Assembly: GCF_018977255.1 (NCBI RefSeq)
Contig: NW_024704762.1
Coordinates: 10,168,001 to 10,232,000, forward strand
Direction of reading: 5' to 3'
Length of the DNA: 64,000 nucleotides
Source: Callorhinchus milii
Taxonomy: Eukaryota
Shown here piece by piece: positions 4,141-54,800 of this stretch. The position numbers and the translations under genes are program-made. Below the pieces are notes generated by a model that saw only the letters and a list, made by a program, of their open reading frames with translations, was not told the origin of the DNA and searched no databases. The number at the start of each line of letters is the position of its first letter. The stretch's first letter is position 1.

Positions 4141-4474
4141 CTTCTCCCAATACTATGTCCTTCAGCTTCTCCACAGCCTCGGAGAATCTGCTCACGTGGT
4201 GCAGCAACTGGGGGATGTCCTCCACGTCAGGCACCTCGTAGCTGTCAGGGTTGGAGGTGGGAGAGGACTTATAGCCTTTACTGTAGCCCCAGGTCCCCGT
4301 GATGGGCATCGAGAAGCCGGCAGCGCTGGAGTGACGGCTCAGGGTGGTGGGTCTCTTCAAGGTACTGACCCCACTCGGGCTGCTGCTCAGTCGCGAGGCA
4401 TTCCCTGTGGCCACGTCCGCCGTAGCCGAGCTCGGAACCAGCGGCGACTCCGACTGGTCCTTCCGAGGGAGTTC
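4141..4474 (-). CDS. ARHGAP45: ARHGAP45 (HMHA1) coding exon 2, 334 nt, phase 0 to 1
   Basis: tgtcag|GAA CTC CCT CGG ... GAA G|gtaagt. ELPRKD...TLKRPTTLSRHSSAAGF...VEDIPQLLHHVSRFSEAVEKLKDIVL matches recalled human ELPRKD...TLKRPTSLSRHASAAGF...VEDISHLLADVARFAEGLEKLKECVL. Later exons lie left of the window. Confidence 0.93.
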
Positions 4475-8127: not shown

Positions 8128-8253
8128 CGTCAGCCATACCTTGGGCCGGCTCGGGAACACGTCCAAAACACACTTAGATTTGGACTTCTTGCCTCTCAGC
8201 CCCACAGAGTAAGGGCTGTAATTGTTCTTCCCACCTCGTCGTTTGTTCAGCAT
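8128..8253 (-). CDS. ARHGAP45: ARHGAP45 alternative (proximal) first coding exon, 42 codons
   Basis: ATG at 8253; MLNKRRGGKNNYSPYSVGLRGKKSKSKCVLDVFPSRPKVWLT|gtaggt. The phase-0 donor fits exon 2. It resembles the N-terminus I recall for teleost arhgap45 isoforms (MLKRGGK..Y.PY...VWL). Confidence 0.65.
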
Positions 8254-8914
8254 CCTTCCCCCCAATATTTGTGGGCAGGGGGGGAGGTTTGGGGTAGGGG
8301 GGGGTGGTGGGAGTTGTTGGTGGTGGTAGGATGGGGATGTAAAGAGTTTGAAGAGGGGAGATGGGTCGACCTCTCCGAAAAAAACCTCTCGTTATTACTC
8401 TATTAATCTTTTTTGGGGGGAGACTGAGGGGTATAAGGGGTTTGAGGGTGGCTATAGGGGTCAACCCCACCCCCCCCCCAAAAAAAAAAAAAACTTCTCT
8501 TGTTATTACTCTATTAAAATAAATGAATTTGTTTGGGGGAAAGAAATACTAAAAGAATCTAATTTCACGACACAAAAAAAAGGCAAAGTTGTTTTAAAGA
8601 AATAAATATACTGTACATAAAATAATTCCTTCTCTCCCCCCACACCCACCACCCACCACCCACCCACCCACCCACCAGCCCCTCACTCCCCCCTCTCCTC
8701 TCCTCTCCCTCTTTGGATGCTCTGTCAAATCATGAATTGGATGGGATTTGGCTGAACCGTCTCTGGGGTTGAGCTGAAGCTGTCGGGACACACACAGTGA
8801 GTGTGTGATGGCCAGAGAGCTGCACCACAGTGGTCACAGCCCCCACCACCCAGAGGGCGATCTCAATAACAGTAACTACATTCCAATCCAAACAGCGGAC
8901 GCTTTGCAACTCAC

Positions 8915-12302: not shown

Positions 12303-12471
12303 TCATAGATTCTCGTAAATGTCCTGCCCTTTGTGGGGGCTGGGGGGTCTCCTCCTGAGGGACGAATTGTTGATGTACAGTGGACCCTCGTCAGCCTCCA
12401 CCTCCGTCCTCGTCCTCTGCTCTGCGTACCTCCCCTCCTCAAGTGAATGTCGCTGCATCTGGGACATCTGG
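12303..12471 (-). CDS. Selectin-like A last exon (cytoplasmic tail)
   Basis: ccacag|C CAG ATG...; [55 protein letters not shown]. Same length (169 nt) and stop position as copy B. Confidence 0.82.
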
Positions 12472-15400
12472 CTGTGGACATAAACGTTAGAAACTTACAT
12501 TTAATCTAGTGTTTTGGGAGGCGGGGAGGGGATGGCGTGGCAGCAGGGGGTAAAAAGGCAGTTAACAACGTGCTAATTAACTAAACGAAACCCCTCAACC
12601 AACTCTAGGCTGTTGTTTAGGGGGTGTCAGCTGGTTAATTTCTTGCCCAAAAAGGGAAGGTGGAAGCAGATTTGATAGCAGCTTTGTAAAGGGAGTTGGA
12701 CAGGTACTTAAAAAGGAACAATGTGCAGGGCTGGGGGTGGGTGGTGAGGTAAGAGCGGGGGGAGTGGGACTAGTTGGGGTAAGAGCGGGGGGAGTGGGAC
12801 TAGTTGGGGTAAGAGCGGGTGGCGTTGGACTAGTTGGGGTAAAAGCGGGGAGCGCGGCACTAGATGGGGTAAGAGCGGGGGGCGTGGGACTAGATGGAGG
12901 GGAGTGGGGATTAGTTGGGGTAAGAGTGGGGGGAGTGGGACTAGATGGAGGGGAGTGAGGATTAGTTGGGGTAAGAGCGGGGGGAGTGGAGATTAGTTGT
13001 GGTAAGAGTGAGCGGCGTGGGACTAGATGGCAGCTCTTTCAAAGAGCCGCCACAGACAGGATGGGCCGAATGGCTGCGACTGAGTGAATCAGCAGAGCCT
13101 TCAAGAGTAGAGTTTCCACAGGAGGGAACACAGAGTCAGCAATGATTGGGTTCAGGGCCAGTGTTAACATGAGGGTAGGCTTAACCCCAACGCGAGGATG
13201 ACTAGGGGGGCAGTGGGGAGGAGGGCAGAGCCAGCCCCCAGCTGGTACTTTGGGGAGTTGACAGCAACACAATCTCGGGGGGAATGTGGAGACCGATCGC
13301 TGAGGACAATAGCTGCGCTGATTGTTGTTACTCACATATTATGGAGATGTTGGGTTCGCTCTGAAGGAGGTGAAAGAGAAAGAGGTTATTACATTACAAC
13401 ATCATTTACATTTACACAGCGGCTTTCACAGCGAGAGGACGTCTCAAAGCCCTTCACAACACTGGCTGGGCACCCGAGCTGGGGGGGGAGAATTGGGGGG
13501 AGGGAATTGAGACACTGCCTTAAACGAAGGGAGGGAGTGAGTGAGTTGGAGGAAGCGAATCGGAGGGAGGGAGGGAGTAGAGATTGAAACTGAACATGCA
13601 TGGAATACAAGCTCGACTAGTCCACTATTTGTGTAATATTTTAGAGCGAATTTCTGTGAAGGGAAGTGAACACGGCAGCCAATTCACACACATCAGCATC
13701 TCACAAACAGCCACTGACAACCAGCTTTATGGTGAACGACCAGGTTTATGGTGAACGACCAGGTTTATGGTGAACGACCAGGTTTATGGTGAACGATCAG
13801 GTTTATGGTGAACGACCAGGTTTATGGTGAACGACCAGGTGTTACCTTCGCCTTTTTTCCTCTTCCGAAAGCAGGTGATCACGGTCAGTAAGAGCAGGAA
13901 CATGGCTATGACTCCGACAATGACAGAGAGAACGATCAACAAGAGTTGGACGCCTGGAGTCACAAAACAATCACAGCGTTACTGAGATCAACTTATTAAG
14001 AATAATAGTAATCCTTAAACAGGTTAACACATCCCCACAAACTGCACCCCAATATAACCAGTGTAGTAGGGAAGGTACGTACATTGGACATCGTGTGAGG
14101 TCCAGTTCCCCGAGTCCTGACAAACCGTCTCAAGGTCACCGTGAAGAACATATCCCCCATCACACGAGAAATAGCAACTGGCGTTGTAGTGAGTGTCACC
14201 GTAGAGACCAGAACAGTTCAGCTCACCGTACTGTGGGGAATCCAGAGCCTGGCAGGGAACAGCTGGGAGGGGTGGACACAGACACACACACACACGGACA
14301 CACACACACACAGACACACACACACACAGACACACAGACACACACAGACACAATAAAACATGCCACACAACATACACCAAACACACCCACACCAATAAAC
14401 CACACACACAGACACACACACACACACACACACACAGACACACACACAGACACACACACACACACAGAGTAAAATTAGGTCACAAATTTTTTAGAAACTT
14501 TTTTTCTTCTAATATTACATATTAATATTACATTTCACACCAAACCTGGACCCTTATCAGTGTAATTAATGCATCACTATCACTATATGAGCCGCACTCC
14601 TCTGAGCTCTCACTGGTGACCGCCCCCCACTCCCCCAACCCCCAGATCGGCTGTTGTCCTGATGGCGTTGGTCGTGTAAAGAGATTTGCCGATAGAGCCA
14701 TAGACGTTTACACACCAGAAGGCGGCCATTCCGCTTGTCCTGCCTGTGCTCTTTGGGAGAGCAATCCTTTCAGTCCCACTTACCCGAGTTCTCTCTTCCC
14801 TTCAAATCCCCGATCTCCGCAAATTACCCCTTTTTGGATTTCGACCTGAGTTCCCTCTCGGAAGTGTAAGATTATATTTGTGATGTTTAATGTTTTTTTT
14901 AATGTTTTTTTAATGCTTTTAGAATGTAACCTACCCATAATCCGTTAATAAGATTGATGTGATTTAATGACTCGCTGACCAAGGGCTTAAAAGTAGCTGT
15001 GCTGGACGGGCTGAGGTCATCTTCTGATTACATTCCATATTTTCCTGGGAAGATGTTCACTCCTCTGAGATAATGAGAAATCGGGTCCTTGAGCATAGAT
15101 ATAAGTACAATGGACCACAAAAAGAATAGGCTGCAGCCTCAGACACCTGCCTATCTCAAGGCTGTGGGAGGCTGCCCAGAAGTTGCCCATATCTCTCTCT
15201 CGCAAGGCAGCCTGTGTAGGGTGGGGGCTATCTCTGTGACCAGGGGAGGGCCTTGCGTGGGGTGGGGACTGTCTGTCTCTGTGACAAGGGGAAGTGGAGG
15301 TAGAAACAAATAAAGGAACGATGTAACTTTGGAATAGTTGGAGTTGTGTAGCGGATCAGTGCATTTTCCAGTGGAATCCATATCGAATCTCCTGTAGCTA

Positions 15401-18400
15401 TGGTCTCAGTTATATGCAAGTCAAAGATCACAAGAACTAGGACTGATCAACCCAAGGGACCAGAAAGGAGAACTGTAGATGGACAGGGGGAGGGGATTTA
15501 CCTCCAGTGTGAAAGTGACCATTAAAAGGGAAAGAGGAGTAGTGAGGTCCGTAAGGAAGGAGGACTTTCTCCAGTCGGAGTCTGGTGTTTTCGCAGGTAA
15601 TGTACATTTCGATTGTTATGCTGTATTAAAACTCTATGCTGATGTGATAATATATCAATGTTAATGCAGAGACTGTTGCTGTTTGTGTGCGAATAAATGA
15701 CCTTTATTTACTCTGAATCTGTGTGTGTCCTCATATTGAGTGAACTGAGGCTCCAGCAAACCTAATAAAAGCTAATCTTGGTCCTGCCTCGATCATCACA
15801 TCCCAACAGCTCTCTCGCTCTGTGAAGAAAATTCCTCCTAATCTTTCCCCAATTTGATCCCTTGTTAACTATTGTAAAACTGATTTCCTCTCTTGGCACC
15901 AACTCCCTGACCAGTGGAAATAATTTCTCCCCAGTGACTCTCTCAAAACCTCTCGTCATTAAAACGACCTCGATCGAGGCTTCCCTCAATCAGTCATCAC
16001 TGTTCATAGCTCAAACCAGTCATCACTGGTGTCATCCCAGCACATCTCCTCTATACCCTCTCCATGTCTTTCCTCAGTAGGTACGAAAACCCGACACATT
16101 ATTCTTACAGTAATAAATACATGGCCATCTATCTATCTCTGGGATTTCAGTGAATAGGTGGGATGCATGGATTCTCAGTTAGGTTTGGTGATGGGTTTCC
16201 ACGTGTGTCAGACATCCGGCTGACCAAAAAAAAGATAGCAATGGATGGAAGGTTGGCATTATAAAAGGCTGGACTTCTCCGGGCCACACAACATACTACA
16301 CAGCAAAATGAAGTATTTCACAGTCTGATCAGCCATGTTTCATTTCCTGATATTGGGTGAAGGAGGAGGTGGAGGGGTGGGTGGGAGGGGAAAGGAGAAG
16401 GAAACCACTGCCAAATAATATGACTAAACTCTCAGATGACTGTAACTGGAAACGTGCGACAGTGACATACTGCCAGCTTGCGGTTATACCATGGACGGTC
16501 ATGCTCAGGGAGGCAGTGGCAAGTTCTCGTTATGTGTGATATTCACACTAGTTTCGTCTGAACTGGTTTCATCAACATTTGCTCCTCTTCCTCCCTCGAC
16601 TTCTTCAAACCCCAAGATTTCCACGCCCCTCCTCCACCCACGATTGTCTCCCCCCCACCCCCACCACATCACCTTGGTGATGACACACCCTCAGAAACCT
16701 CAAACATGATCTGCTCGTCCCCAGGAGGTGACGTTACTGCTGCTATTTATTGGTTTCCGCTATTTTCCGCTGAACTAACTTTGGTTGTAGCCCCACCAAC
16801 AGCTCCTTCTACACCACACCCTCCCCCTAACTATTCTAAATGTATTCTCACTACAATTCAGTTTTGTTAGTCCATTTTGTCGAGATGTCTAAAATCAAGA
16901 TGCTCAGTGCATGGGAAATGGTATTGTTCATAGGAACAGGAGGAGGCCATTCAGCCCCTCAAGCCTGTTCTGTCATTCTATAAGATCATGGCTGATCTGT
17001 ATCTCGACTCCAATTACCCGCCTTTGACCTGTATCCCTTGATCCCCTGACCTAACAAATAGCTATTCACCTCAGTCTTGAAACTCATGCTTGCATTCCAA
17101 CAAAGTCAACTGCTCTCAGGACCCATCTTTTTGCTCCCCTTGTCCTGCCCTGTCCTGCCCTGTTAACATGCCCTGTGAGAAGAGGCAGACACCACACCCT
17201 GTTTGGGGAGGGGCACTTAGGATGTGTGATGCAGGATCCGTATTGGCTTTCAACAGGGAACAGGGATACCTAAAGAGGTGTCATTTGCAGAGGTTTTGGG
17301 AGAAAAGGCAATGGGACTGAGTGGATTCTTTGCTGCCAAAGTAGATAATATTCAAGTGAATATCCTTGAGTTTGATGTAGAAGCACCATTCATGTTGGGG
17401 GATGCCTCAAAGCCCTTCCTGTAATGTTCAGTGAGAATAAAGTGTGGCTTTATTGTAAGCTAATGCCAGTGCAAGTGTGAAAGGAGAAGCAATCACTATG
17501 GTGACGGCTCAGGGTGGGTGTTATATTAGTCCCCAAAACTGTGGTTTACTTCTGCAGAAGCTGAGTCCAGGCAATCACAACAACAACAACAAGATTACAT
17601 TTGTATGGCACCTTTCATGTCGGGAGGGCACTAAAGAGGGCAAAAGCTACAAACGGTGCAAATATTGTCGTCAATAATAAAAAGTGAAGAATTGCAATAA
17701 TAATAAAGCCTAAACGGTTTAGCGGTGTCCGGCTCACTTACCTCGGCAGGTTGTACCAGGAGAGCTCCAGTCGCCGGTATCTTGGCACCTTGTCCGTGTC
17801 GTCCCGTTCGGAATAAAGCCCACATCACAAGTGAACGTGCACTCAGACTGAAAGTGCTGCTCACCGTACAGTCCCTCACATTTGACGCTGCCGTGGCTCG
17901 GTTTGGTAATCGCAGGACAAGATTGGACTGGAGCACATAAACACACACAGGGCAAAATGTTCAGCTCAGCTGAGGGGTAGGGGATGGGGGCTGGGAAGGG
18001 GGAGGCTATTCGGCTCACAGTGTGTCTGTGCCATCGCTATCTCTGTGGTGGTCTCAGATCGCTGAGCCAGGCGGGTCCACAGGATTCAAGCACGAAGATG
18101 GTCATCGTAGCCGTTCATCACTAAAGTGCCAGACACCACCCGACCGACCCCCAGAATATTCTGCATGCAAGCCATAAATATTCCCGGCTTCATTCACTTA
18201 CGAGAGATTCACTACAGCAAGACTCTATCGATTTGGTTAACTGACAATTAAACGCTTGTTATGCACTTGATAGCTATTCGGTTAATTAACAGATAAGCGT
18301 GTGTCCGTGCTCCACAACATATGATTGTGTTACGTCCCTCGGCTGTCTATACTGTACTTACCGTGTTCACAGTTTTTACCGGAGAAAACATGCTCACAAT

Positions 18401-20008
18401 CACACGTGAAATCATTTGCCATCTCAGTGCAGTTGCCTCTGGAGTTGCAAGTTGTCGGTTTGCATTGAACTGCGGGGAAAGGGGAACGAACGCAGGGGTC
18501 AGTGTTGAGCTGGGGGTGGGGTGTGTGGGGTGTGTAGGGTGTGTGTGGGGTGTGTGTTTGTGTGGGTATGTGTATGTGGGTTTGTGTGTGTGAGGTGTAT
18601 GTGGGATGTGTGTCTGCTCACACGTCACACAATAAATAATAATAATAATCCTTCCATTTAATATAGCGCCTTACCACATCTTTATGATGTCTCAAGGGAT
18701 TTCACAGAATATACTGTACAGTGAATTGACTGTATATTTTGTGATCACAATTAAATCACCTAAACCAACACTGGTTAAAATTCGTCCATGTGCTTCAAAG
18801 GTGTATTTCATATTGCTTGAGAAAGCAGCAATGTCCCATTGCATGAAACAAACAGTCGTGGCTTAAGTGACCAAATTATTATTTTTTTTGCTTCCCCGTT
18901 ACCCTCAGGAGCCTGATCCATAAGTTTACTACTTGATCACTGAAGCAGTGTTTATGCAGATTCTTTCTGAATTTACCACTTTCAATCGCAACCGACTGAT
19001 TGGAACCGTGTCCTCTGGTTCTACTGTTCTGGACAAGATTAAAAACACCTTAACATGGTCTACATTGTGATATATCTGTCCCTCTTGGAGGCAACCAAGA
19101 GAGAGTAATCCTCACTTACTTCACACAAACTTAGACAAACAGGATAGGTGGGGACTTACATTCCTGGCACACGTAATACTTGCTGCTCGAGCAAGATACA
19201 CTATTCCATTTGTGGTCATTATGTAACTCCGCACAATATTCATAAGCCAAAATGCGGTTGCTGGGCTCTCCAGACCCCCATTTGGTGTAGGACACTGGTT
19301 GATTGGAGCCTGTGAGGCACCAATTGCTCCCACACTTGGTCACTCCAAACCAAACTCTGTTGACACCAGTCACCTCCACCAGATACCGATGGAGCTCTTC
19401 GCTGTAGACTTCAGCCAGTCCATCGGAATGTGCTTTGCAGTCCTCGGATGATTGTGGAAATGTCTTTGGTACTTGGAACAACTTGAAGACGACACTTTCA
19501 GAAACGCACAGACACCCTAAACACACGGAAACAGCCGATTAGAAACAACATACCGTTCGCTCAGGTTATGTGACCAAATTTAGTGGGGAGAAGCCCTGTC
19601 CCTTCCAAGTTCTGCTGATGGGCCAGGCTGGGCTGGTGTGATCAGCAATGCCCTGGAGCACTGCAGACACGTCGCGCTCAGGAACAAGACTACTGAGGGA
19701 GAGAGAGAGAGAGACTCTCACAGAGGATTGACTGGATTCCAACATCCCTTTGCCAAGCACATCACCTTAGCTTCAAGGAGAAGCACTTACCTCGTTTCTC
19801 TCACAAGGAGAATAGTCATCATTTCCTGCAAATGGACGGCACTGAATTCGGTGGATTTAATATGATTGCGGAAATGGAAATGTAATAGTTTCGAGGTTAG
19901 GTTTTACAAAACCACAATTAATTGAAACAACGTTAAAAAAATGACAGCAGTTAAATAATAAATGTTCGTACCAGACAGGAGAAGAAACCGTGAGACGTTG
20001 GCAATCAT
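12303..20008 (-). CDS. Selectin-like gene copy A (SP-CTLD-EGF-CCP-CCP-TM-tail), 389 aa, 8 coding exons
   Basis: join(20008-19972, 19516-19160, 18469-18362, 17927-17742, 14262-14083, 13953-13846, 13360-13336, 12471-12303) = 1170 nt. All introns are GT-AG, phases are consistent and the frame is open. Domain order matches L-selectin; orthology is not established. Confidence 0.88.
13336..13360 (-). CDS. Selectin-like A 25-nt cytoplasmic micro-exon (ERTQHLHN)
   Basis: ctccttcag|AG...AT|gtgagt. It converts phase 1 to the phase 2 needed by the last exon, and differs from copy B only by a synonymous change. Confidence 0.8.
13724..13840. repeat. 19-bp VNTR (CAGGTTTATGGTGAACGAC), ~6 copies
   Basis: Visible directly; only ~2.5 copies at the paralogous site 22790-22838. 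Confidence 0.9.
13846..13953 (-). CDS. Selectin-like A transmembrane exon
   Basis: gactccag|GC GTC CAA...; (C)[35 protein letters not shown]|gtaaca. Hydrophobic helix followed by a polybasic stop-transfer stretch. Confidence 0.88.
14083..14262 (-). CDS. Selectin-like A CCP/sushi domain 2 exon (180 nt)
   Basis: [59 protein letters not shown](C); selectin-type six-Cys CCP. Confidence 0.92.
14865..15767 (+). mobile_element. Putative solo LTR nested in a LINE fragment
   Basis: Starts TGTAAG, has AATAAA near 15692 and ends CCTAATA (expected ...CA). Flanks GAAG/AAAG form an imperfect 4-bp TSD. It lies within a ~2.8-kb segment absent from the paralogous intron of copy B. Confidence 0.45.
17742..17927 (-). 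CDS. Selectin-like A CCP/sushi domain 1 exon (186 nt)
   Basis: gctccag|TC CAA...CGA G|gtaagt; [61 protein letters not shown]. Confidence 0.93.
18362..18469 (-). CDS. Selectin-like A EGF domain exon (108 nt)
   Basis: ccccgcag|TT CAA TGC...CAC G|gtaagt; [35 protein letters not shown], with six Cys in EGF spacing. Confidence 0.92.
19160..19516 (-). CDS. Selectin-like A C-type lectin domain exon (357 nt)
   Basis: gtgtttag|GG TGT...GAA T|gtaagt. Contains [19 protein letters not shown] and WNSVSC...YYVC CTLD motifs. Confidence 0.93.
19972..20008 (-). CDS. Selectin-like A start/signal-peptide exon (37 nt coding)
   Basis: ATG ATT GCC AAC...TCT G|gtacga. Spliced to the CTLD exon it gives [20 protein letters not shown], a signal peptide reminiscent of E-selectin MIASQFLSALTL. 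Confidence 0.75.
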
Positions 20009-21224
20009 TCTCCCGGGAGAAAGCCCAGTGACCACACCAACCTTGAGGGAGATTCCAAACTAAGTGCAGCTCTGAATGGACTGAGAGACAGATGACCAGA
20101 CCTCACAGTCTGCTGAACGGAAGCAGAATCTGTCATTAAAGCCAACCCTCAACTTTGGTACAAAATTAGATCCAATCTTTTGTTTCTGAGACTCCTCCCA
20201 GCACCGGCAATACTTAATCCACAAAATAGTTTGTGAGTGATTCTAAGAATCCTCTGGTATCGCTTCCCTGTAGATCTTAGCCTTGGTACAGACCAACCAT
20301 GATGTTTAACATCCCCTCAGCTCTTTCACAATCCCTGAGTACCTACCACATAGTCTGTATAGTCATTACCAGCGCACACGCAGACACATACACACACACC
20401 AACCACGCACACACATGCACACACACATACCAACCACGCACACACATGCACACACACATACCAACCACGCACACACACGTATCAACCATACATACTCATA
20501 TACATACACAGATACCAACCATACACACATATATACACACACACAGTGGACGTAAATGTACAGTACAAGTTATTGTAAAATTAGATTCAGGAAATCACCA
20601 CAAACTGTACAGCACTGAGTGTGGAGAATGTGATGTGTGAAAGATATTTCAAGATAGAGTGCACAGAGACACATTCTCCACACTCAGTGCTGTACAGAAA
20701 ACACATACTGGAGAAATATTCACAACAACAATAATAATCATCGTTGCATTTGATATAGCGCCTTTTGGCATCTTCGAAAGCGCTCTGAGGCACTACTCTG
20801 TGCGGAGGGCGCTATTCAAGTGCAATTTGTTGTTGTTGTCTCACAGCACTTTACAAGATATACTGTAAAGTGTGGTGACTGTATATTTTGTGGTCAAAAC
20901 ATGGCAGCCAATTGCGCACCGCAGCTTCCGCGCACACAGTTGTGGATTGAGAGACCAAATTGTTATTTTTTTTAATCGATTTCTTGTTGAAGAGATTATT
21001 ATTCCCAGAAACACACAAAACTCTTCGGGAAGGTTCACATCACTTCCTCTTTTTAATTTTTTTTAAAAAAAGGAACAGTGTAAATTGACAAGGAACTGGC
21101 GAGACCGAAATCAACACTTTTAGTATTGTTTTAAAAAAATTTGATACGAGACACAGCAATCTAGCTTCCAAACATCTTTTATTTGTGAATCGGTAAATCC
21201 TGACACTCTTTTCCCCCCCGTTAC

Positions 21225-21360
21225 CACTAACTGATTAAACCCACACCAGTACTGGATTAGACCATCACAGCGTACGCTTATATAGGTGACACCTCGCTTA
21301 GAGCATGTACACACTCCAACATGGCTCAAGGGATCTCTCTCAGGGGAGGGCTGATTGGTG
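21225..21360 (-). promoter_or_regulatory. Candidate core promoter of selectin-like A (CCAAT, TATA, short non-coding exon donor)
   Basis: Minus-strand CCAAT at 21358-21354, TATATAAG at 21284-21277 and a GTAACG donor at 21224. The block is conserved in copy B while its flanks diverge. Confidence 0.55.
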
Positions 21361-21466
21361 AATTTACACACGACGAGGGTATAAATCAGAGCTGTACACC
21401 CCATGTGTGTAGGACCTGATTGACACTAAATTGAAGCTCTTCCAACAATGCTCTGTGTCAGTGAGT

Positions 21467-21638
21467 NNNNNNNNNNNNNNNNNNNNNNNNNNNNNNNNNN
21501 NNNNNNNNNNNNNNNNNNNNNNNNNNNNNNNNNNNNNNNNNNNNNNNNNNNNNNNNNNNNNNNNNNNNNNNNNNNNNNNNNNNNNNNNNNNNNNNNNNNN
21601 NNNNNNNNNNNNNNNNNNNNNNNNNNNNNNNNNNNNNN
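21467..21638. other. Assembly gap between the two selectin-like copies
   Basis: Run of N. Confidence 0.99.
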
Positions 21639-21691
21639 AGCGAGTGTCTCAGTCACCAATGCCCTTGTGTTGCCACTGGTGATTGACTGCC

Positions 21692-21860
21692 TCACAGATT
21701 CTCGTAAATGTCCTGCTCTTCCTTGGGGTCGGGGGGACCTCCTCTTCGGGGCGACACGTTGGTGTACAGCAGATCCTCGTCAGCCTCCGCCTCTCGCCCC
21801 GTCATCCGCTTCGCGTACCTCGCGTCCTCCAGCGTTTGTTGCTGCTTCTGTGTCATCAGG
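21692..21860 (-). CDS. Selectin-like B last exon (cytoplasmic tail with LLYTNV and DIYENL)
   Basis: gtgcgcag|C CTG ATG...; LMTQKQQQTLEDARYAKRMTGREAEADEDLLYTNVSPRRGGPPDPKEEQDIYENL*. Confidence 0.82.
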
Positions 21861-23284
21861 CTGCGCACATAGACGTTGGAAACTTAATAATAATCCCGGC
21901 ATTCGACACAGCGCTTCATCACGTCTTCGAGGTGTCTCAAAGCACTTCACAGGATGCACTGTAAAGTGTAGTGACTGTATGTTTTGAGGGCGAAACCCAG
22001 CAGCCAATCACGCACAGCAGCGTCCCCACAAACAGTCGGGGATTAAAGGGATTACTGCTCCCGGAAAAGAGATCCGCCAATCGACTAACAACTGGGTTCC
22101 TACTCACTGCTGGTAAACAGAGGCGTGTGGCGTAAGGAAACTTGCCGACGGTTACACCCTGCACGGGAATCGAACCCAGGTCCTCTCGCTTGCGAGGCGA
22201 GAGCTCTAACCACCGAGCTACAGGACTCCACAGGGTAGGCTTAACCCCAACGCGAGGATGACTAGGGGGGCAGTGGGGAGGAGGGCAGAGCCAGCCCCCA
22301 GCTGGTACTTTGGGGAGTTGACAGCAACACAATCTCGGGGGGAATGCGGAGACCGATCGCTGAGGACAATAGCTGCGCTGATTGTTGTTACTCACATATT
22401 GTGGAGATGTTGGGTTCGCTCTGAAGGAGGTGAAAGAGAAAGAGGTTATTACATTACAACATCATTTACATTTACATTTACACAGCGGCTTTCACAGCGA
22501 GAGGACGTCTCAAAGCCCTTCACAACACTGGCTGGGCACCCGAGCTGGGGGGGGAGAATTGGGGGGAGGGAATTGAGACGCTGCCTTAAACGAAGGGAGG
22601 GAGTGAGTGAGTTGGAGGAAGCGAATCGGAGGGAGGGAGGGAGTAGAGATTGAAACTGAACATGCATGGAATACAAGCTCGACTAGTCCACTATTTGTGT
22701 AATATTTTAGAGCGAATTTCTGCGAAGGGAAGTGAACACGGCAGCCAATTCACACACATCAACATCTCACAAACAGCCACTGACAACCAGCTTTATGGTG
22801 AACGACCAGGTTTATGGTGAACGACCAGGTTTATGGTGTTACCTTCGCCTTTTTTTCTCTTCCGAAAGCAGGTGATCACGGTCAGTAAGAGCAGGAACAT
22901 GGCTACGACTCCGACAATGACAGAGAGAAGGATAAACAAGAGTTGGGGCACTATGTCTGGGACGCCTGGAGTCACAAAACAATCACAGTGTTACTGAGAT
23001 CAACTTATTAAGAATAATAGTAATCCTTAAACACATCCCCACAAACTGCACCCCAATATAACCAGTGTAGTAGGGAAGGTACGTACATTGGACATCGTGT
23101 GAGGTCCAGTTCCCCGAGTCCTGACAAACCGTCTCAAGGTCACCGTGAAGAACATATCCCCCATCACACGAGAAATAGCAACTGGCGTTGTAGTGAGTGT
23201 CACCGTAGAGACCAGAACAGTTCAGTCTACCGTACTGTGGGGAATCCAGAGCCTGGCAGGGAACAGCTGGGAGGGGTGGACACA

Positions 23285-23325
<41 letters not shown>

Positions 23326-26300
23326 ACACACAGACACAGTAAAACATGCCACACAACATACACCAAACACACAGACACACACACACAAAACAGAGTAACG
23401 TTGGGTCACAAATGTTTTTGAAACTTTTTCTCCTCTAAAATAATTAATAAACTTGTAATTAATATTACATTTCACACCAAACCTGGACCCTTATCAGTGT
23501 AATTAATGCAGCACTATCACTATATGAGCCGCACTCCTCTGAGCTCTCACTGGTGACCGCCCCCCAATCCCCCAACCCCCAGATCTGCTGTTGCTAATAA
23601 GCTAATGCCAGCGTAAGTGTGAAAGGAGAAGCAATCACTCTGGTGATGGCTCATCCGGCCCACCTCAGGGTGTTATGTTAGACCCCGAAACTGTGGTTTC
23701 TTTCTGCAGAAGCTGAGTCCAGGCAATGACACTAAACAGGGCAAAAGCTACAAACGGTAAAAATATCGTCGTCAATAATAAAAAGTGCAGAATTGCAATA
23801 ATAATAATAAATAAAAGCGCACACACACAAGCGAGCTAAGGCAATCAACTCTGGGGCAAAAGAGGTGCCAAAGCCTAAATGGTTTAGCGGTGTCCGGCTC
23901 ACTTACCTCGGCAGGTTGTTCCAGGAGAGCTCCAGTCGCCGGTATCTTGGCACCTTGTCCGTGTCGTCCCGTTCGGAATAAAGCCCACATCACAAGTGAA
24001 CGTGCACTCAGACTGAAAGTGCTGCTCACCGTACAGTCCCTCACATTTGACGCTGCCGTGGCTCGGTTTGGTAATCGCAGGACAAGATTGGACTGGAGCA
24101 CATAAACACACACAGGGCAAAATGTTCAGCTCAGCTGAGGGGTGGGGGGTGGGAAGGGGGGAGGCTGTGCCATCTGTGTCTGTGCCATCGCTATCTCTGT
24201 GGTGGTCTCAGATCGCTGAGCCAGGCGGGTCCACAGGATTCAAGCACGAAGATGGTCATCGTCGCCGTTCATCACTAAAGTGCCAGACACCACCCGACCG
24301 ACCCCCAGAATATTCTGCATGCAAGCCATAAATATTCCCGGCTTCATTCACTTACGAGAGATTCACTACAGCAAGACTCTATTGATTTGGTTAATTGACA
24401 ATTAAAAGCTTGTTATGCACTTGATAGCTATTTGGTTAATTAACAAATAAGCGTGTGTCCGTGCTCCACAACATATGATTGTGTTACGTCCCTCGGCTGT
24501 CTATACTGTACTTACCGTGTTCACAGTTTTTACCGGAGAAAACATGCTCACAATCACACGTGAAATCATTTGCCATCTCATTGCAGTTGCCTCTGGAGTT
24601 GCAAGTTGTCGGTTTGCATTGAACTGCGGGGAAAAGGGAACGCAGTGGTCAGTGTTGAGCTGGGGGTGGGGTGTTTGTTTGTGTCCGCTTATAAATCACT
24701 GGATTACAGAAATAGAAATTTACTGTGCAGGAAAAACCCATTAGTCCCATCGTATCAGAGTCTACACCAACTCTCAGACTGAGGTAGTCATTCAATCCCC
24801 TCTAATCCTACAATTGTCTCTGTCTCTATCCTAATGAAACTGTATGTAATAGTCCTTACATTTTGATACAATGCCTTATGACATCTTCAAGACTTCTCAA
24901 AGCGCTGCACAAAATATACTATAAACAACAACAACAAAATGACATTTATAGAGCGCCTTTCACATCGGGAGGACGTCCCAAAGCGCTGAACAGTCAGGTG
25001 TCGGGGCCCGAGCCGGGGGGAGGGATGGGGTTGGGGTGAGGGAAGGCAGAGAGGTGGGAGTGAGATAAAAGGCACAGTCGAGAAGGGTCTTGAGACCCTC
25101 CTTGAAGGAGGTAAGGGAGGAAGCGAGGCGAAGGGACCGTGGGATGGAGTTCCAGAGTGTGGGGGCAGAGAGGCTGGAAGCCCGGCCACCGATGGTAGGG
25201 CGGGAGACATTGAGCAGCCGGAGCCCGCTGAACGGATGGAGCGGGCAGGTTGGTAGGAAGTCAGCAGGTCAGAGAGGTAGGAGGGGTCAAGGCTATAAAT
25301 GGTGTAGTGACTGTATATTTTGTGGGTGAAATGCGGCAACAGCAACAAGATTACATTTGTATAGCGCCTTTCACGGCAGGAGGACGTCCCAAGGCACTGG
25401 AAATTATACACAGCAAAGTCCCACAAACAGTCGTGGTTTGAGTGACCACATATATTTTTTAAAAAAGGGATTATTTATTAAACGAAAACTTCCTGGCGTC
25501 AGTCTTGAAATTATCCTTTGCAACCCTCAGCTGTGTCCTTTGGGTTTCTATCTCAGTATGTCAGAAAGTATTGCTTTGACTTTACATTTTCACTTCCCAT
25601 TTATAATTTTATACACAGCTCTGAGCTGTGAGCAACTCGCAACATGTAATTATGACGGCTTCGGAAAATGTAGTCTCTGCCTAAAAAACCCATAGCTCCC
25701 AAATAAAGGCAACAATAGGGAACCGGAGGTGCAGTTTGTCTCATCTATTCGCCAGTCTTATCTGTCCCACTTGGAGGCAACCTCGAGAGCATAATCCACG
25801 CTTACTTCACACAAGTGAAGAGAAATCTGATAAGTGGGGACTTACATTCCTGGCACACGTAATACTTGCTGCTCGAGCAAGATACACTATTCCATTTGTG
25901 GTCACTATGTAACTCCGCACAATATTCATAAGCCAAAATGCGGTTGCTGGGCTCTCCAGACCCCCATTTGGTGTAGGACACTGGTTGATTGGAGCCTGTG
26001 AGGCACCAATTGCTCCCACACTTGGTCACTCCAAACCAAACTCTGTTGACACCAGTCACCTCCACCAGATACCGATGGAGCTCTTCGCTGTAGACTTCAG
26101 CCAGTCCATCGGAATGTGCTTTGCAGTCCTCGGATGATTGTGGAAATGTCTTTGGTACTTGGAACAACTTGAAGACGACACTTTCAGAAACGCACAGACA
26201 CCCTAAACACATGGAAACAGCAGATTAGAAACAACATACAGGGAACAAACCGTTCGCTCAGGTTATGTGACCAAATTTAGTGGGGAGAAGCCCTGTCCCT

Positions 26301-26705
26301 TCCAAGTTCTGCTGATGGGCCAGGCTGGGCTGGTGTGATCAGCAATGCCCTGGAGCACTGCAGACACGTCGCACTCAGGAACAAGACTACTGAGGGAGAC
26401 AGAGAGAGAGACTCTCACAGAGGATTGACTGGATTCCAACATCCCTTTGCCAAGCACATCACCTTAGCTTCAAGGAGAAGCACTTACCTCGTTTCTCTCA
26501 CAAGGAGAATAGTCATCATTTCTTGCAAATGGACGGCACTGAATTCAGTGGATTTAATATGATTGCGAAAATGGAAATGTAATAGTTTCGAGGTTAGGTT
26601 TTACAAAACCACAATTAATTGAAACAACGTTAAAAAAATGACAGCAGTTAAATAATAAATGTTCGTACCAGACAGGAGAAGAAACCGTGAGACGTTGGCA
26701 ATCAT
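21692..26705 (-). CDS. Selectin-like gene copy B (SP-CTLD-EGF-CCP-CCP-TM-ITIM tail), 394 aa, 8 coding exons
   Basis: join(26705-26669, 26202-25846, 24623-24516, 24092-23907, 23266-23087, 22965-22843, 22420-22396, 21860-21692) = 1185 nt. All introns are GT-AG and the frame is open. Confidence 0.88.
21885..22229 (-). mobile_element. Full-length tRNA-derived SINE
   Basis: Head GGAGTCCTGTAGCTCGGTGGTTAGAGC...GGTTCGATTCCC (A and B boxes), body, shared 3' tail and (TTA)n end. Sibling copies at ~29573-29848 and ~62138-62456. Confidence 0.85.
22396..22420 (-). CDS. Selectin-like B 25-nt micro-exon
   Basis: Same splice sites and phases as copy A. Confidence 0.8.
22843..22965 (-). CDS. Selectin-like B transmembrane exon (123 nt)
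   Basis: (C)[40 protein letters not shown]; 15 nt longer than copy A, in frame. Confidence 0.88.
23087..23266 (-). CDS. Selectin-like B CCP2 exon
   Basis: As copy A except YGRLNC versus YGELNC. Confidence 0.92.
23907..24092 (-). CDS. Selectin-like B CCP1 exon
   Basis: Protein identical to copy A (one synonymous change seen). Confidence 0.93.
24516..24623 (-). CDS. Selectin-like B EGF exon
   Basis: As copy A except GNCNEM versus GNCTEM. Confidence 0.92.
25846..26202 (-). CDS. Selectin-like B C-type lectin exon
   Basis: As copy A except ELHSDHK versus ELHNDHK. Confidence 0.93.
26669..26705 (-). CDS. Selectin-like B start/signal-peptide exon
   Basis: Identical to copy A: [13 protein letters not shown]|gtacga. 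Confidence 0.75.
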
Positions 26706-27661
26706 TCTCCCGGGAGAAAGCCCAGTGACCACACCAACCTTGAGGGAGATTCCAAACTAAGTGCAGAGGCAGCTCCGAGAGACAGATGACCAGACCTCAC
26801 AGTCTGCTGAACGGAAGCAGAATCTGTCATTGAAGCCAACCCTCAACTTTGGTACAAAAGTGGATCCAATCTTTTGTTTCTGAGACTCCTCCCAGCACCG
26901 GCAATAGTTAATCCACAAAATAGTTTGTGAGTGAATCTGAGAATCCTCTGGTATCGCTTCCCTGTAGATCTTAGCCTTGGTACAGACCAACCATGATGTT
27001 TAACATCCCCTCAGCTCTTACACAATCCCGGGGTACCTACCACATAGTCTGTATAGTCATTACCAGCGCACACGCAGACACATACACACACACCAACCAC
27101 GCACACACATGCACACACACATACCAACCACGCACATACCAACCGTTCACACATACACACACACCAACCACACACACACCACTCATACATATAACAGCCC
27201 ATTTCTTCTGTAATTTTTTATATTTTGGTGTTATGTTTAACAATAACAAATTACATTTACACGGCGCTTTTCACATCAGGACTTCTCAAGGCACTGGACT
27301 GTCAGGGATTTGGACCTGAGCTGGGAGTTGGGACGAGGGGGGGGGTAGGAGGGTGACAGTCGACACGGTCAAAGAGGAGGGTCTTGAGGCAGGCCTTGAA
27401 GGAGGCAAGGGAAAGAGCGAGGCGGAGGGAATGTGGGATGGAGTCCAAGGACAGAGAGCCTGAAGGCCTGATCGCCGCTACTGGGGCAGGCTGGGCGGAG
27501 GACCGGGCGAGGGATGTGGGGTGGCCCGAAGCCTGCTGAGCCGGAGGGAGCTGGCAGAAGAACACAAGAAATATCATGAAAACATTGACACGAGACGCAC
27601 AAATCTAGGTTTTTAAAATGCTTTATTTGCGACAACGTAAATCTCTTTTCCCCCCCGTTAC

Positions 27662-27800
27662 CGTGGTTTGCTCATTAGCTCCCACACCAGTACTGGATTA
27701 GACCATCACAGCGTACGCTTATATAGGTGACACCTCGGTTAGAGCATTACACACTCCAACATGGCTCAAGGGATCTCTCTCAGGGGAGGGCTGATTGGTG
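27662..27800 (-). promoter_or_regulatory. Candidate core promoter of selectin-like B
   Basis: TATATAAG at 27725-27718, CCAAT upstream and a GTAACG donor at 27661; near-identical to 21225-21410. Confidence 0.55.
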
Positions 27801-29572
27801 AATTTACACACGACGAGGGTATAAATCAGAGCTGTACACCCCGTGTGTGTGTGTGTGTATTAATAAGGGGAGTTTTACTAGTTTATTATTGAATCTCCCA
27901 CTGGTGCATCGCTTTGCTCTACCTCACTCAAGGCTGCTGTAGACAGAACCCTGAAGCAGAAGCCAATTCTCGTACACTTAAATCCCATTAAGTGTAACCA
28001 GCTATGAAACTGAATATCCCATTGCCCCCCCACCCCCCGGTGAGAATTCCAAGTGCCACCCTGGAACACTTGGCACCCAATACATTGTGTGGGCTCTGTT
28101 TTGTTCAAACAGCAAAAGAAACTCATAACGTTTCAAAGTTGTCCTATCTACAAGTTAATTTATCTGGCTGCTCCCTGCTAGCAGATTTTCGATTAGATCA
28201 TTCATTGTACAGCCTTTTCCCCCCTCCGTTCACTCACACCCACCCCCTCGCCCCACACAAACTCTGCACACTCCCCGTACTTTGCGCCCTTTTGTGCTGT
28301 GCGCAGGAAGTGATGTGAAAGGTATCTCGACAAGCCCCGACGAGACATATTGCGCGCACTCCCCTTTTGAAGCGAGTGTGAGATATTGGACCCAGTGCTC
28401 GGGGATTAGAATAGGGTGTTCCCTGTATTACAGGGGTGGATAGGAACACCAAGTGGCAACCAACAAATGGTGCTGACAAACAGTCATTTCTGTAGACTGA
28501 CTCACTACCAAGGGTCAGTTCTCAAACCTCCCGCTTTGTAAAGTGCACGTGTGTGTGTGTGTGTGTGTGTGTGTTGGGAGGGGGGTGGGGGGAAACAATA
28601 CTCGCTGAATGCCAAGATCGTGAAACTTCTGCTGAGAGGACGTGAAGGTTTGCTGTCAAACAAAAGGCTGTGGATTATGGCTGGATCCACTAACATTTCC
28701 AAAGCTGAGGGGGAAAGATATCTGTTAGATCAGGGATTCAAAGGATATGTAGCCAGGGCGGGTAATTGGAGCTGAGGTACAGATCAGCCATAATCTAATA
28801 GAATGGCGGAATAGGCTTGAGGGGCTGAAGGGCCTGCTCCTGTTCCTGTGAACAATACACTTCCCCATGCACCGGCGAGATTGTAGACATCTCAACAAAA
28901 ATGGGTTGACAAAGCTGAACTGTAGTGAGAATACATTTAGAATAAGTTTACTGATCATTTTATACATTCATCATACAATATCTAGGATACGAAGTACTCT
29001 TGAATTTACAGTTTCACATGATATAGTTGCTCGTGAATGCTAACAGGCAGTTTCAAAAATAAAATTGCCAATACATTCAAGCAGTCTAAAGAAGCAAAAA
29101 AAAACTTTAGTCTCCATTAAGTAAAGCCACAGCTTTGTGTACTGACTGATTAAAAGGGCTGCAAACAGCACTTCCACAGGCTGACAAAACAATCATCGCA
29201 ATACGCCGTCAACCTTCACAGCATTACTGTGGTGCCAATTGCAGTTCACTTACTTGTGTGCGCTTTTTTTTTACTCCTGTTTCTGCTCATCACAGAGTCC
29301 ATCCACACTTTAGGGCAGACACACGGAGCCAGATTCATTGTTTGTCTTTGTTGGTCAGCCGGGTGTCTGACGCACACCGGAAACCCGTCACCGCGCTTAG
29401 AGTATCCAAACCACATATTGACACGCTCTACATGTGGGAATTTGCCTGCGTGAAGTCAGCTTGGTTGTAGTAGTGGCTCCGTCACTGGCCTTTTAAACCG
29501 ACATATTAGACCTCCCCCCACTCCCAAAAGACAATCCTTTCAGAGGGAGAAGACATCAGAGACTTTGGAAGA

Positions 29573-31752: not shown

Positions 31753-44985
<13,233 letters not shown>

Positions 44986-45032
44986 CTTGGAGACGCGACT
45001 GTTGACAAGGCGGCGGCGGCGGCGGCGGCCGA

Positions 45033-49677: not shown

Positions 49678-49691
49678 CTTCAATTGACAAG

Positions 49692-51491: not shown

Positions 51492-51829
51492 TTAGTGGAA
51501 CATGCAGCCGCCTGGGCTGGAAGCTGATCGGAGGCTGATGGGGGACGGAATTCTGAGGCTGGGAGAGGAGCGGAGGCCGGAGGGGGGAGAGGCCAGAGAG
51601 AGGGACGTGCCCCCAAGGCCAGCCTTGCCCGCTGTGATCATGCCGGGAGTGAAGTCCGGGTGTCTGCGGGCGTGCTTCATCAGGTGGTCGCTCCGCATGA
51701 ACCTCTTGTCGCACATGGGGCACCGAAACCTTTTCTCCCCAGTGTGTGTCCGGTAGTGACGAGCCAATTCGTCCGAGCGGGCAAACTTCTTCAGGCAGAG
51801 GGCCCAAGTGCACGGGAACGGCCGCTCAC
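51492..51829 (-). CDS. KLF16: KLF16 exon 2 (zinc fingers 2-3 and C-terminus)
   Basis: ccctcag|GT GAG CGG; [56 protein letters not shown]. Confidence 0.93.
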
Positions 51830-54800
51830 CTGAGGGACAGACAATCAATCAATCAGGAAATCAATAAAACAATCAATCAATCAATAAGAACTGCTGGGAC
51901 GAGCACATTCACGGCGAACAAATGGCCATGTATTAGCCCACGTGTCTGTCCCTCTCTCTGAGCCACTCCACTAGTAATAGTAATAATACTTGCATTAGAT
52001 ACAGCACCTTATCACGTGGTCGAGACGCCCCAAAGGGCTTCGCAGAATATACCGTAAAGTGAAGCGACTGTGTGTTTTATGGGAGAAATCGGTCACCAAC
52101 TGTGTGCGCAGCGCCATCCCACAAACAGCCATCAAGCGAGCGACCAATTTTATTTGGGGGATTGTCAGCCAGGAGAGAGGGAGAGAAACTCCCTTCTCTT
52201 TTCCGACAGTGTTGACTGGTGATGCAGTGCATTCCCCTGGCCGGCTCGGTCTGCCTGTATCACACACAGCCCCCACCCCCCCAGACAACGTGCAGCAGTC
52301 AATCTCGTCACCCACTGATCATGATTCGCAGTAATGCGAGAGAGCGCTCGTCTCTGCCTCACACTCGCTCACGTAATAATAGAAAATATAATAATAAAAT
52401 ACATTTTATAAAAATATAACGTCCTCAGTCACAAGCAAACTAGTTCATGCGGGAAGTTATTTTATTTTACCAAAAAAAAACACAATGAGAGAGTTCAGAG
52501 GAATGGTTTCCATGTAGAATAAATCCCATCCCCCCACTCACCCGAGCACCCACACACACACTCCACCCCACCCCACCCTTCCACAGACAAACACACACAT
52601 CCTCACACCCACCCACACTCAATTTCCACCCTTCCCCTCCCCTCACACATGTGCTCTAGGTTTATTGCTGACAAAGTGCCCGAGTGTGACTCTGGTCTGT
52701 TGTGTAGATGGTTATACGGTCGCACGACATGGTCACACTGCTCTCAAACCAGACACGTTACATTTACTGAAAATCTACTTCATACAACACCCAGCAGCAC
52801 CGAACCCCGCCCCACCCCAAACCCCCAGCAGACAGGGTGGGGGGTTTCAGAGCAGCCGTTTGTGGGTCTGTGTGTCTGTTGCTCTCACTCAGTCACTAAC
52901 TTAAAAGAAAAGAAAATTCAGTGCCTCCCACGTTCTCAGCTTTTATCCCTTTCGGGATCACTGAAGATCAGAAACACACCCAGTGCTGAAGGGAACGGCT
53001 GAATTCTGTCCACAAACCACTCGCAATAATAATAATCCTGGCATTTCACATCACGTCTTATCACGTCTCAAAGCAATTCACAGAATGCACTGTAAAAAGG
53101 TATTTACTGTGTATTTTGTGGGTGCATACAAATACACATGCCCCAATACACAAACACACGCCCCAACACACACATAAACATCCCAACACACGCACACGCC
53201 CACACACACATCCCAACACACATACGCACACGCCCCAACACACATAAATACGCCTCCCCCAACATATATATACACACGTACACACCCCAACACACACCCC
53301 AACACACATACATACACACACATCCAGCACACCACGCCCAAACCAGGAAGCTGCAAGGACAAAGCATGAAACTGACAAGAGACTGATCCAGCCCCATGGT
53401 TTTAGAAGAAGAAGGGAGGGAGAGAGAGATGGGGAGAGAGCTGGGGGGGGGGGGGGCAAGAGCTGGGGGGGAGAGAGAGCTGGGGGGCGGACGAGACCTG
53501 GGGGGGGGTGGGGGGCGAGAGCTGGGGGGGGAGAGAGCTGGGGGGGGAGGAGAGATAGCTGGGGGGGTGGGGGCGAGAGCTGGGGGGGAGAGAGAGCTGG
53601 GGGGGGGGGAGAGATAGCTGGGGGGGTGGGGGGCGAGAGCTGGGGGGGGAGAGAGGTTTCTAACTGGAATAGTTAAAACTTAAATTTATAGCTCAGTTCA
53701 TTTGGTAAAAGTTGCTGTGAAAAGGTTGGGTTTGACTAGAATAGGATGGGGTGGTGGGGGGGGGTATGTGTGTAGTGGGGGGGTATGTGTGTGGTGGGCG
53801 GGATATGTGTGTGGTGGGGGTGGGGTATGTGTGTGGTGGGGGTGGGGTATGTGTGTGGTGGGGGGGTTATGTGTGTGGTGGCGGGGGGGGTATGTGTGTG
53901 GTGGGGGGGGTATGTGTGTGGTGGGGGTGGGTATGTGTGTGGTGGGGGGGGTTATGTGTGTGGTGGCGGGGGGGGTATGTGTGTGGTGGGGGGGGGTATG
54001 TGTGTGGTGGGGGTGGGTATGTGTGTGGTGGGGGGGTTATGTGTGTGGTGGCGGGGGGTGGGGTATGTGTGTGGTGGCGGGGGGGGGTATGTGTGTGGTG
54101 GGGGGGGGTATGTGTGTGGTGGGGGGGTATGTGTGTGGTGGCGGGGTGGGGTATGTGTGTGGTGGTGGCGGGGGGGGTATGTGTGTGGTGGCGGGGGGGG
54201 TGTATGTGTGAGGTGGCGGGGGGGGGTATGTGTGTGGTGGCGGGGGGGGGGGTATGTGTGTGGTGGCGGGGGGGGGTATGTGTGTGGTTGAGGGGGGGGT
54301 TCTCAGACAGTGAGGGCTCCACAGGGGGCGTTGACTCTGACACTCAATCAGACCCAGAAATCTAACCAAAGGTTTGGAACAGCCCACGAGGTTCTGGTTA
54401 CATTGGGAGCCAAAGAGACTCACATCCCCACCTCCCTCTTACCCCCCCTCTCCCCTATATATATTCTGGGAGGACAGTGCCTGGGTATGTTGGGAGGGGG
54501 GGTCAGTGCCTGGATATGTAGGGGGGGGGGGGTCAGTGCCTGCGTATGTAGGGGGGTCTGTGCCTGGGTAAGTTGGGAGGGGGGTCAGTGCCTGGGCATG
54601 TAGGGAGGGGGGGGGGGTCAGTGCCTGCGTATGTAGGGGGGGGGGTCTGTGCCTGGGTATGTAGGGGGAGGAAGGGTCAGTGCCTGGGTATGTTGGGGGG
54701 GGGGTCAGTGCCTGGGTATGTTGGGGGGGGGGTCAGTGCCTGGGTATGTTGGGGGGGGGGGTCAGTGCCTGGGTATGTTGGGGGGGGGTCAGTGCCTGGG

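Follow-up and report, generated by a model that had tools for sequence, protein, structure and literature searches.

The canonical selectin gene plan is one domain per phase-1 exon. In the available parts of the literature, the selectins (group IV: SELE, SELL and SELP) are treated as three clustered genes, from fish to man (PMC514892, PMC6527602), and the Fugu survey, in the portion available, records three selectins only, plus the unrelated NLSLH (PMC514892). NLSLH, of Fugu and human 1q25.1, is a further selectin-like C-type lectin-like domain (CTLD) outside the cluster, but it is described there as soluble and as consisting of one CTLD that lacks sugar motifs; it maps to 1q and does not have the architecture seen here (PMC514892). 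Here, a stretch of 64,000 nucleotides from Callorhinchus milii (the window, meaning the whole stretch analysed) was found to carry two tandem minus-strand genes of selectin architecture, copy A (20008-12303) and copy B (26705-21692). Judged from a sequence tree, these genes are very probably recent tandem copies of an ancient selectin paralogue, which split from the SELE/SELL/SELP line before the cartilaginous/bony divergence; chimaera, skates, bamboo shark and coelacanth, at a minimum, still carry it. No publication describing this lineage was found in the literature searched, which covers few subscription journals. The available part of the elephant shark genome supplement (PMC3964593) holds no selectin gene row, and a TNFSF synteny supplement holds no selectin rows. 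Nothing specific to the lineage came from PMC8302630, PMC11762692 or PMC11765562.

L-selectin (SELL) resembles the window proteins in its two SCR (CCP) domains and its similar overall length. However, its tail has 17 amino acids (PMC6527602), compared with 71 in the window proteins, its shedding site lies in the stalk between CCP2 and the membrane, where copy A is almost stalkless, and no grouping of the two is supported. An earlier note on this DNA, made from the sequence alone, had pointed to the L-selectin count of two CCPs; this likeness proved uninformative, because the SCR number varies within the family and skates have one.

Exon structure and domain organization of the two tandem genes

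The coding exons of both copies measure 37, 357 (CTLD), 108 (EGF), 186 and 180 (CCP), a transmembrane exon, 25 (phase 1 to 2) and 169 nt, the transmembrane exon being 108 nt in copy A versus 123 nt in copy B. The spliced open frames encode 389 (copy A) and 394 (copy B) amino acids. All 14 introns are GT-AG, the ectodomain exon junctions are phase 1 throughout, and both copies encode one domain per phase-1 exon in the selectin order CTLD-EGF-SCR(n)-transmembrane-tail. The exon sizes and phases given in the earlier note were exact in every case; the note passed over the 71-residue tail with its tyrosine motifs and the 172-N gap between the copies. Single exons matched Pfam Lectin_C (1e-11), EGF (3e-4) and Sushi (1e-9 and 8e-10). 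The features of the two genes are listed below.

19972..20008, minus strand: copy A coding start exon, 37 nt, encoding most of the signal peptide; agrees with the N-terminus of homologue P0002
19160..19516, minus strand: copy A CTLD exon, 357 nt; EPS/WNS replacing EPN/WND; extra Cys74-Cys79 pair
18362..18469, minus strand: copy A EGF exon, 108 nt
17742..17927, minus strand: copy A CCP1 exon, 186 nt; CCP of the selectin kind, with six cysteines
14083..14262, minus strand: copy A CCP2 exon, 180 nt; the transmembrane exon completes its final Cys
13846..13953, minus strand: copy A transmembrane exon, 108 nt
13336..13360, minus strand: copy A small cytoplasmic exon, 25 nt, phase 1 to 2
12303..12471, minus strand: copy A last coding exon, 169 nt; contains two YxN motifs and ends in YENL before the stop
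21135..21410, minus strand: copy A predicted promoter (CCAAT, TATA-like) and putative non-coding first exon, donor near 21224
21467..21638, no strand: assembly gap, 172 N, between the copy B 3' end and the copy A promoter
26669..26705, minus strand: copy B coding start exon, 37 nt
25846..26202, minus strand: copy B CTLD exon, 357 nt, single-base difference from copy A
24516..24623, minus strand: copy B EGF exon, 108 nt
23907..24092, minus strand: copy B CCP1 exon, 186 nt
23087..23266, minus strand: copy B CCP2 exon, 180 nt
22843..22965, minus strand: copy B transmembrane exon, 123 nt, five extra stalk residues
22396..22420, minus strand: copy B small cytoplasmic exon, 25 nt
21692..21860, minus strand: copy B last coding exon, 169 nt; LLYTNV matching the consensus of an immunoreceptor tyrosine-based inhibitory motif (ITIM); terminal YENL
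27579..27850, minus strand: copy B predicted promoter and putative first exon, donor near 27661

The copy A promoter block is 86% identical to the copy B block 27579-27850. A very strong donor was seen in the first coding intron of both copies (segments 19790-19842 and 26487-26539, minus strand), possibly marking a cryptic or alternative exon. Extra exons built from the donor near 19790/26487 and an acceptor near 19692 were rejected, because their phases misfit and RefSeq skips both. Directly after the donor of the transmembrane exon lies a 19-bp minisatellite, with 6.4 copies in copy A (13720-13840) and 2.8 in copy B (22786-22838). Two AATAAA at 10743-10760 (minus strand), about 1.55 kb beyond the copy A stop, form a candidate polyadenylation site.

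The copy A splice model and RefSeq XP_007908685.1 (389 amino acids) mismatch at two residues only. The homology search returned XP_007908685.1 under the name 'L-selectin-like' and XP_007883823.1 under 'E-selectin-like'; both genes are already annotated automatically, under canonical selectin names. Sequence and model together show the encoded product to be a type I membrane protein in which a single C-type lectin domain is carried on an EGF-CCP stalk. The chimaera ectodomain is colinear with human E-selectin over CTLD-EGF-CCP-CCP (E 8e-43; the next match in the PDB at 4e-23). The AlphaFold model (mean predicted local distance difference test 79.8) had E-selectin 4c16 as its best Foldseek match (template modelling score 0.82 by target, 29% identity), a result that is not independent, because the model alignment contained 15 canonical selectins. 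The CCPs are of the 62-residue, six-cysteine type of selectin SCRs, which were also their best non-family matches, the library having been chosen beforehand for resemblance to the query. For the CTLD, a four-sequence family profile gave E-selectin as the best single-domain match in the PDB (66 bits versus 61 for MBP-C). By ESM features, selectin clusters ranked first (0.95-0.96).

Phylogenetic position and origin of the lineage

Relatives at 46-49% identity were found by HMMER search in Amblyraja (XP_032902449.1), Chiloscyllium (XP_072449715.1) and Latimeria (H3B390), and Leucoraja XP_055514837.1 was added by cluster membership. Of 4317 hits, only the best 150 were available, a good part of these being long sushi proteins, so that the family range is a lower bound, also with regard to gar, lungfish, teleosts and tetrapods. 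Domain number varies among the relatives: the bamboo shark protein has three EGF and two CCP domains, and the skate proteins one of each. One isoform (P0001) is without CCP1. A canonical selectin was found in the skate Rhinoraja (XP_078263974.1); three weak word-index protein searches (2 of 43, 3 of 879 and 5 of 1932 candidates) gave no canonical selectin from the chimaera.

An unrooted tree of 30 rows was built from CTLD, EGF and CCP1, with five family rows and 25 canonical rows. The canonical rows were the matches with a full CTLD-EGF, leaving out duplicate isoforms, fragments and two amphioxus-like CTLDs; they cover skate, sturgeon, teleosts, lungfish, amphibians, lizard, duck and one mammal-like row, four rows being unlabelled. 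The Chiloscyllium protein was aligned without its two additional EGF repeats. The five family rows split from the 25 canonical rows at 100/100, with a joining branch of 2.8 changes per column. The same five-row group was obtained with the CTLD alone (100) and with EGF and CCP1 alone (99); a CTLD swap limited to one lineage was therefore rejected, since EGF and CCP1 by themselves yield the identical group. In the approximately unbiased (AU) test, trees holding the chondrichthyan family rows with the skate canonical row (p = 0.0007), or the coelacanth with lungfish SELE (p = 0.001), were rejected. The rejection of such one-orthologue-per-lineage trees (p ~0.001) indicates that the split predates the shark/bony-fish divergence. 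Moreover, each group has cartilaginous and bony members, so that the split is older than crown gnathostomes wherever the root lies. CTLD identity was 45% between chimaera and coelacanth, 57% between skate canonical and lungfish, and 24% between chimaera and skate canonical. Against canonical selectins the family CTLDs were 31% identical on average, compared with 58% among the canonical rows. An extra cysteine pair was present in all five family rows and in none of the 25 canonical ones. Long-branch attraction is a risk here, but the five rows share this private cysteine pair and other invariant residues.

The separate selectin lineage suggested in the earlier note is supported by the grouping of skate, bamboo shark and coelacanth orthologues apart from the canonical skate, sturgeon, teleost, lungfish and tetrapod selectins, and by the AU tests. 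The alternative given there was a translocated selectin; a translocation private to the chimaera lineage is unsupported as the source of the divergence. The same note had asked whether the proteins nest within SELL, SELE or SELP; no supported nesting was seen, and SELL grouping was not recovered in the tree, but a sister position to the one putative L-type row (a label of ours) was not rejected (p = 0.58).

Several points weigh against an ancient, separate paralogue. Attachment among the canonical rows is allowed by the AU test at the L-type (p = 0.58), E-type (p = 0.47) and skate canonical (p = 0.66) positions. The tree is unrooted, it has only five family rows, its bootstrap had not fully settled, and long branches meet in the CTLD tree. 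The skate canonical row comes from Rhinoraja, another genus than the family skates, and both kinds were not seen within one species. The margin of E-selectin in the profile search is only 5 bits, and when the chimaera CTLD is searched by itself, mannose receptor CRD4, collectin-11, SP-D and langerin score higher than the selectins.

The setting of the genes bears on how the lineage arose. The neighbours in the window are as follows.

4141..4474, minus strand: open exon, putative ARHGAP45; no Pfam match
31753..44988, minus strand: BTBD2-like gene (BTB ... PHR); PHR exon 45/49 identical to human BTBD2 (BTBD1 not compared)
51492..57188, minus strand: three-finger KLF gene (Pfam)

The KLF gene we take to be KLF16, and the open exon ARHGAP45, on sequence likeness. 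Of the KLF16-BTBD2-ARHGAP45 locus named in the earlier note, BTBD2 is supported by its PHR exon and the KLF gene by its three fingers; the names KLF16 and ARHGAP45 remain presumptive. Membership in a tandem L-P-E cluster was not found, the neighbours being the BTBD2-like gene, the KLF gene and the putative ARHGAP45 exon. Three further features were noted nearby. The first KLF exon (56560-56910, minus strand) contains a long in-frame Pro/Asn/Thr/Ser repeat (SPGPDP and PNTS units), which follows the N-terminal motif and precedes the zinc fingers. Downstream of the KLF gene, a 260-bp segment is directly duplicated in tandem with 96% identity (49156-49414 / 49413-49679). A short Met-initiated frame ending at a GT donor (8128-8254, minus strand) may provide the ARHGAP45-like gene with an alternative first coding exon.

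KLF16 and ARHGAP45 belong to one ancestral chromosome in the available part of the Lamb 2021 table (PMC8040251), which is consistent with the neighbour names. In the same partial source, chicken 28 / gar LG19 correspond to fused 7B+8B and chicken 8 / gar LG10 to 8C+9C, A and B having parted from C and D at the first round of whole-genome duplication (1R). An origin by whole-genome duplication would therefore date to 1R, and would require the selectin to be a paralogon-8 gene; its second-round (2R) form was rejected, since the two chromosomes split at 1R. Among 38 paralogon-8 rows in the part of the table available, 35 have a human quad-C position, all on chromosome 1 at 43-101 Mb and none on 1q (0/35), and the 1q24-25 genes belong to paralogon 9, with partners on 9q34, the major histocompatibility complex (MHC) and chicken 30, not chicken 28 (PMC8040251). 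The chromosome of the window (7B+8B) and the 1q24 chromosome (8C+9C) share paralogon 8 (1R), whereas the 1q24 neighbours are paralogon 9. SELE and SELP have no entry in that part of the table, and the selectin placement was taken from human 1q24.2. The 1q/19p MHC paralogy, as described in the available part of PMC7674686, is paralogon 9 and, by our reading of Lamb's table, falls outside this segment.

These paralogon data make us lean towards early duplication and transposition. The lineage may have arisen by small-scale duplication and transposition from an early gnathostome selectin cluster, for example as a sister of L-selectin, before the shark/bony-fish split, followed by fast evolution with loss of sialyl-Lewis-x (sLex) binding; the age bound would be equal. 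We hold this tentatively, as a serious contender that falls somewhat short of an even chance. Besides the paralogon data, which lean against in-place retention after genome duplication, the AU test allows a sister position to the L-type row (the held tree being 1.4 log-likelihood units higher) or to E-type rows, and canonical tails often end in a YxN motif as well. However, no nested position has branch support, and the joining branch of 2.8 is far above the distances within the canonical group.

The earlier note had proposed, as one possibility, a whole-genome-duplication ohnologue. In its 1R form, the lineage would be the ohnologue of the canonical selectin ancestor, still in place on the 8B chromosome beside ARHGAP45, and it keeps some probability because the 8C and 9C halves are mixed on gar LG10. 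The ohnologue of ARHGAP45 (8B; chicken 28, gar LG19) is ARHGAP29, which sits on chicken 8 / gar LG10 (8C), and DNM3 and PRRC2C, both 1q24 genes, are on this same fused chromosome; the deep branch fits such an age; and the skate orthologues lie on records of 34.7 and 31.1 Mb, the skate canonical selectin on one of 61.0 Mb (in a different species). Set against this are the 0/35 count on 1q, the paralogon-9 identity of the 1q24-25 genes and the absence of SELE and SELP from the available table, and we consider the ohnologue doubtful. A fuller version, in our view a still less probable one, would make this a fourth selectin lineage, born at 1R, that chimaeras, elasmobranchs and coelacanth retain on a chicken-28-type microchromosome and that teleosts and tetrapods have lost; it would have kept the ancestral broad mannose/fucose site and become a signalling receptor, its sister gaining the sLex loop and rolling. 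If this were true, the selectin rod would be older than the lamprey split and the lineage a living reference for the evolution of sLex recognition.

Lectin site, cytoplasmic tail and proposed function

The residues compared at the lectin site (Y48, E92, Y94, R97, K111 and K113) have ligand or adhesion roles in selectins, as given in the available part of PMC6331844. Four of them were absent from all five family rows: Y48 (23/25 canonical), Y94 (25/25), R97 (23/25) and K111 (19/25). E92 and K113 were each kept in three of the five, and no family row has the full set of sLex/adhesion residues seen in selectins. Loop 94-100, before WND, is five residues shorter in 5/5 family rows. On the calcium side, E80, E88 and N105 are kept in all five rows, and Leucoraja, Chiloscyllium and Latimeria have the whole ligand set E80, N82, E88, N105 and D106; in Amblyraja, residue 106 is Y. 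Both chimaera copies have Ser at N82 and D106 and thus depart from the selectin calcium-ligand set, and the chimaera branch is the longest in the CTLD tree (2.4). The ancestral protein would have bound mannose/fucose/GlcNAc-type sugars through the calcium site (EPN...E...WND), which is kept in little skate, bamboo shark and coelacanth, and the site of the chimaera copies may be weakened or lost. In EPN...E...WND and the short pre-WND loop, as in comparable CTLD scores, the relatives of the chimaera resemble mannose-type CTLDs (MBP-C, collectin-11, SP-D, mannose receptor CRD4), but the family has an EGF-CCP rod and neither collagen stalk nor tandem carbohydrate-recognition domains.

The cytoplasmic tails measure 71, 71, 57 and 35 amino acids in four family rows, compared with 15-35 in 27 canonical rows, so that the short tail of selectins is not found in the window proteins (71). 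Tail motifs were named by the consensus definitions of ITIM, the immunoreceptor tyrosine-based switch motif (ITSM), YxxM and Grb2-type YxN. SH2-type motifs are present by consensus match and conserved between copies A and B, and Y[ED]N[LV] occurs in three of four family tails versus none of 27 canonical tails. The acid-flanked YxN, the ITIM consensus of copy B and the ITSM and YxxM consensus of little skate resemble tyrosine-motif immune receptors and transmembrane adaptors, but no sequence homology to these was found and the family ectodomain is of selectin type.

Selectins share with the family the domain order, one domain per phase-1 exon, six-cysteine SCRs and the E-selectin-colinear fold. 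They differ in Y48/Y94/R97/K111, the longer 94-100 loop, the lack of the extra cysteine pair, the shorter tail and the L-P-E cluster. As three selectin features failed (ligand residues, short tail and cluster), the genes were filed as a selectin-related lineage.

On sequence grounds, the role that we consider most likely, at roughly even odds, is that of a signalling lectin receptor of blood or vessel cells, and not that of a rolling receptor for sialyl-Lewis-x. Receptor clustering would lead to phosphorylation of the acid-flanked tail tyrosines and recruitment of SH2 proteins, of Grb2 type at YxN and of SHP type at the motifs resembling ITIM/ITSM. As it is chiefly the tails that distinguish the chimaera copies, the two would see one ligand and give two outputs. 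On the other side, 8 of 27 canonical tails likewise contain a plain YxN, the Amblyraja model tail has only 35 amino acids, and dN/dS (non-synonymous to synonymous divergence) of ~0.7 in the last exon indicates modest constraint on the tail. An adhesion lectin of the ordinary kind, which tethers cells or lets them roll on other glycans and uses its tail tyrosines as sorting signals instead of SH2 docking sites, would account for the retained whole selectin rod and the intact calcium ligands of three relatives, and YENL fits a tyrosine-based endocytosis consensus. We think this unlikely on balance, as it sits poorly with a tail twice the canonical length, two or three tyrosines with ITIM/ITSM/YxxM consensus matches, and the loop shortened by five residues in every family row. 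Taken as a whole, an ancient selectin paralogue acting as a signalling lectin receptor, with a one-ligand/two-output pair in the chimaera, is the explanation that we favour with moderate confidence.

Relation between the copies and meaning of the lineage

The ectodomain exons of copies A and B are 98-100% identical, but the last exon only 77% (dN 0.29, dS 0.40), with 29 of 55 residues identical by hand count, including all three tyrosines and the last seven residues. Two introns differ greatly in length (3479 versus 640 and 690 versus 1222). XP_007908685.1 agrees with copy B at residues 116 and 150 and with copy A from residue 247 onwards; this mixture means that the model bridges the copies or that recombinants exist. 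Among 13 listed sequencing-run entries, 11 contain part of copy B, with no RNA run among them, which bears neither on expression nor on copy number. In UniRef, A0A4W3GY98 (C. milii) has a CTLD residue absent from both window copies, hinting at a third copy or allele. We read the copies as a true duplication with a recently copied or converted ectodomain. It is improbable that they are divergent alleles of a single gene assembled side by side: the 172-N gap between them, the near-identical ectodomain exons and the mixed RefSeq protein would suit alleles, but the 77% last exon, the 86% promoter block, the two intron lengths and the separate RefSeq records for each tail type would not.

Independent assembly of a generic CTLD with selectin-like EGF/CCP modules by exon shuffling, the likeness being partly convergent, is the least probable alternative, for although the chimaera CTLD puts other lectins first, Atlas structure neighbours of the skate CTLD place E-selectin at rows 8-9 of 9 and all exons are shuffle-compatible phase 1, the profile search ranks E-selectin top among single domains, the domain order, exon sizes and six-Cys 62-residue CCPs agree with selectins, and ESM features favour selectin clusters.

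Sharks and coelacanth are well known to retain ancient paralogues, and the finding is less surprising for that. Nevertheless, a lineage at least as old as jawed vertebrates, masked by 'L-', 'E-' and 'P-selectin-like' labels, would alter the history of the selectin family, and such annotations are unsafe as orthologues in shark immunology. With the rod kept, the calcium site present in three relatives and the sLex residues gone, the family would be a natural comparator for the origin of rolling adhesion, and also for the ancestral selectin role, whether adhesion or signalling.

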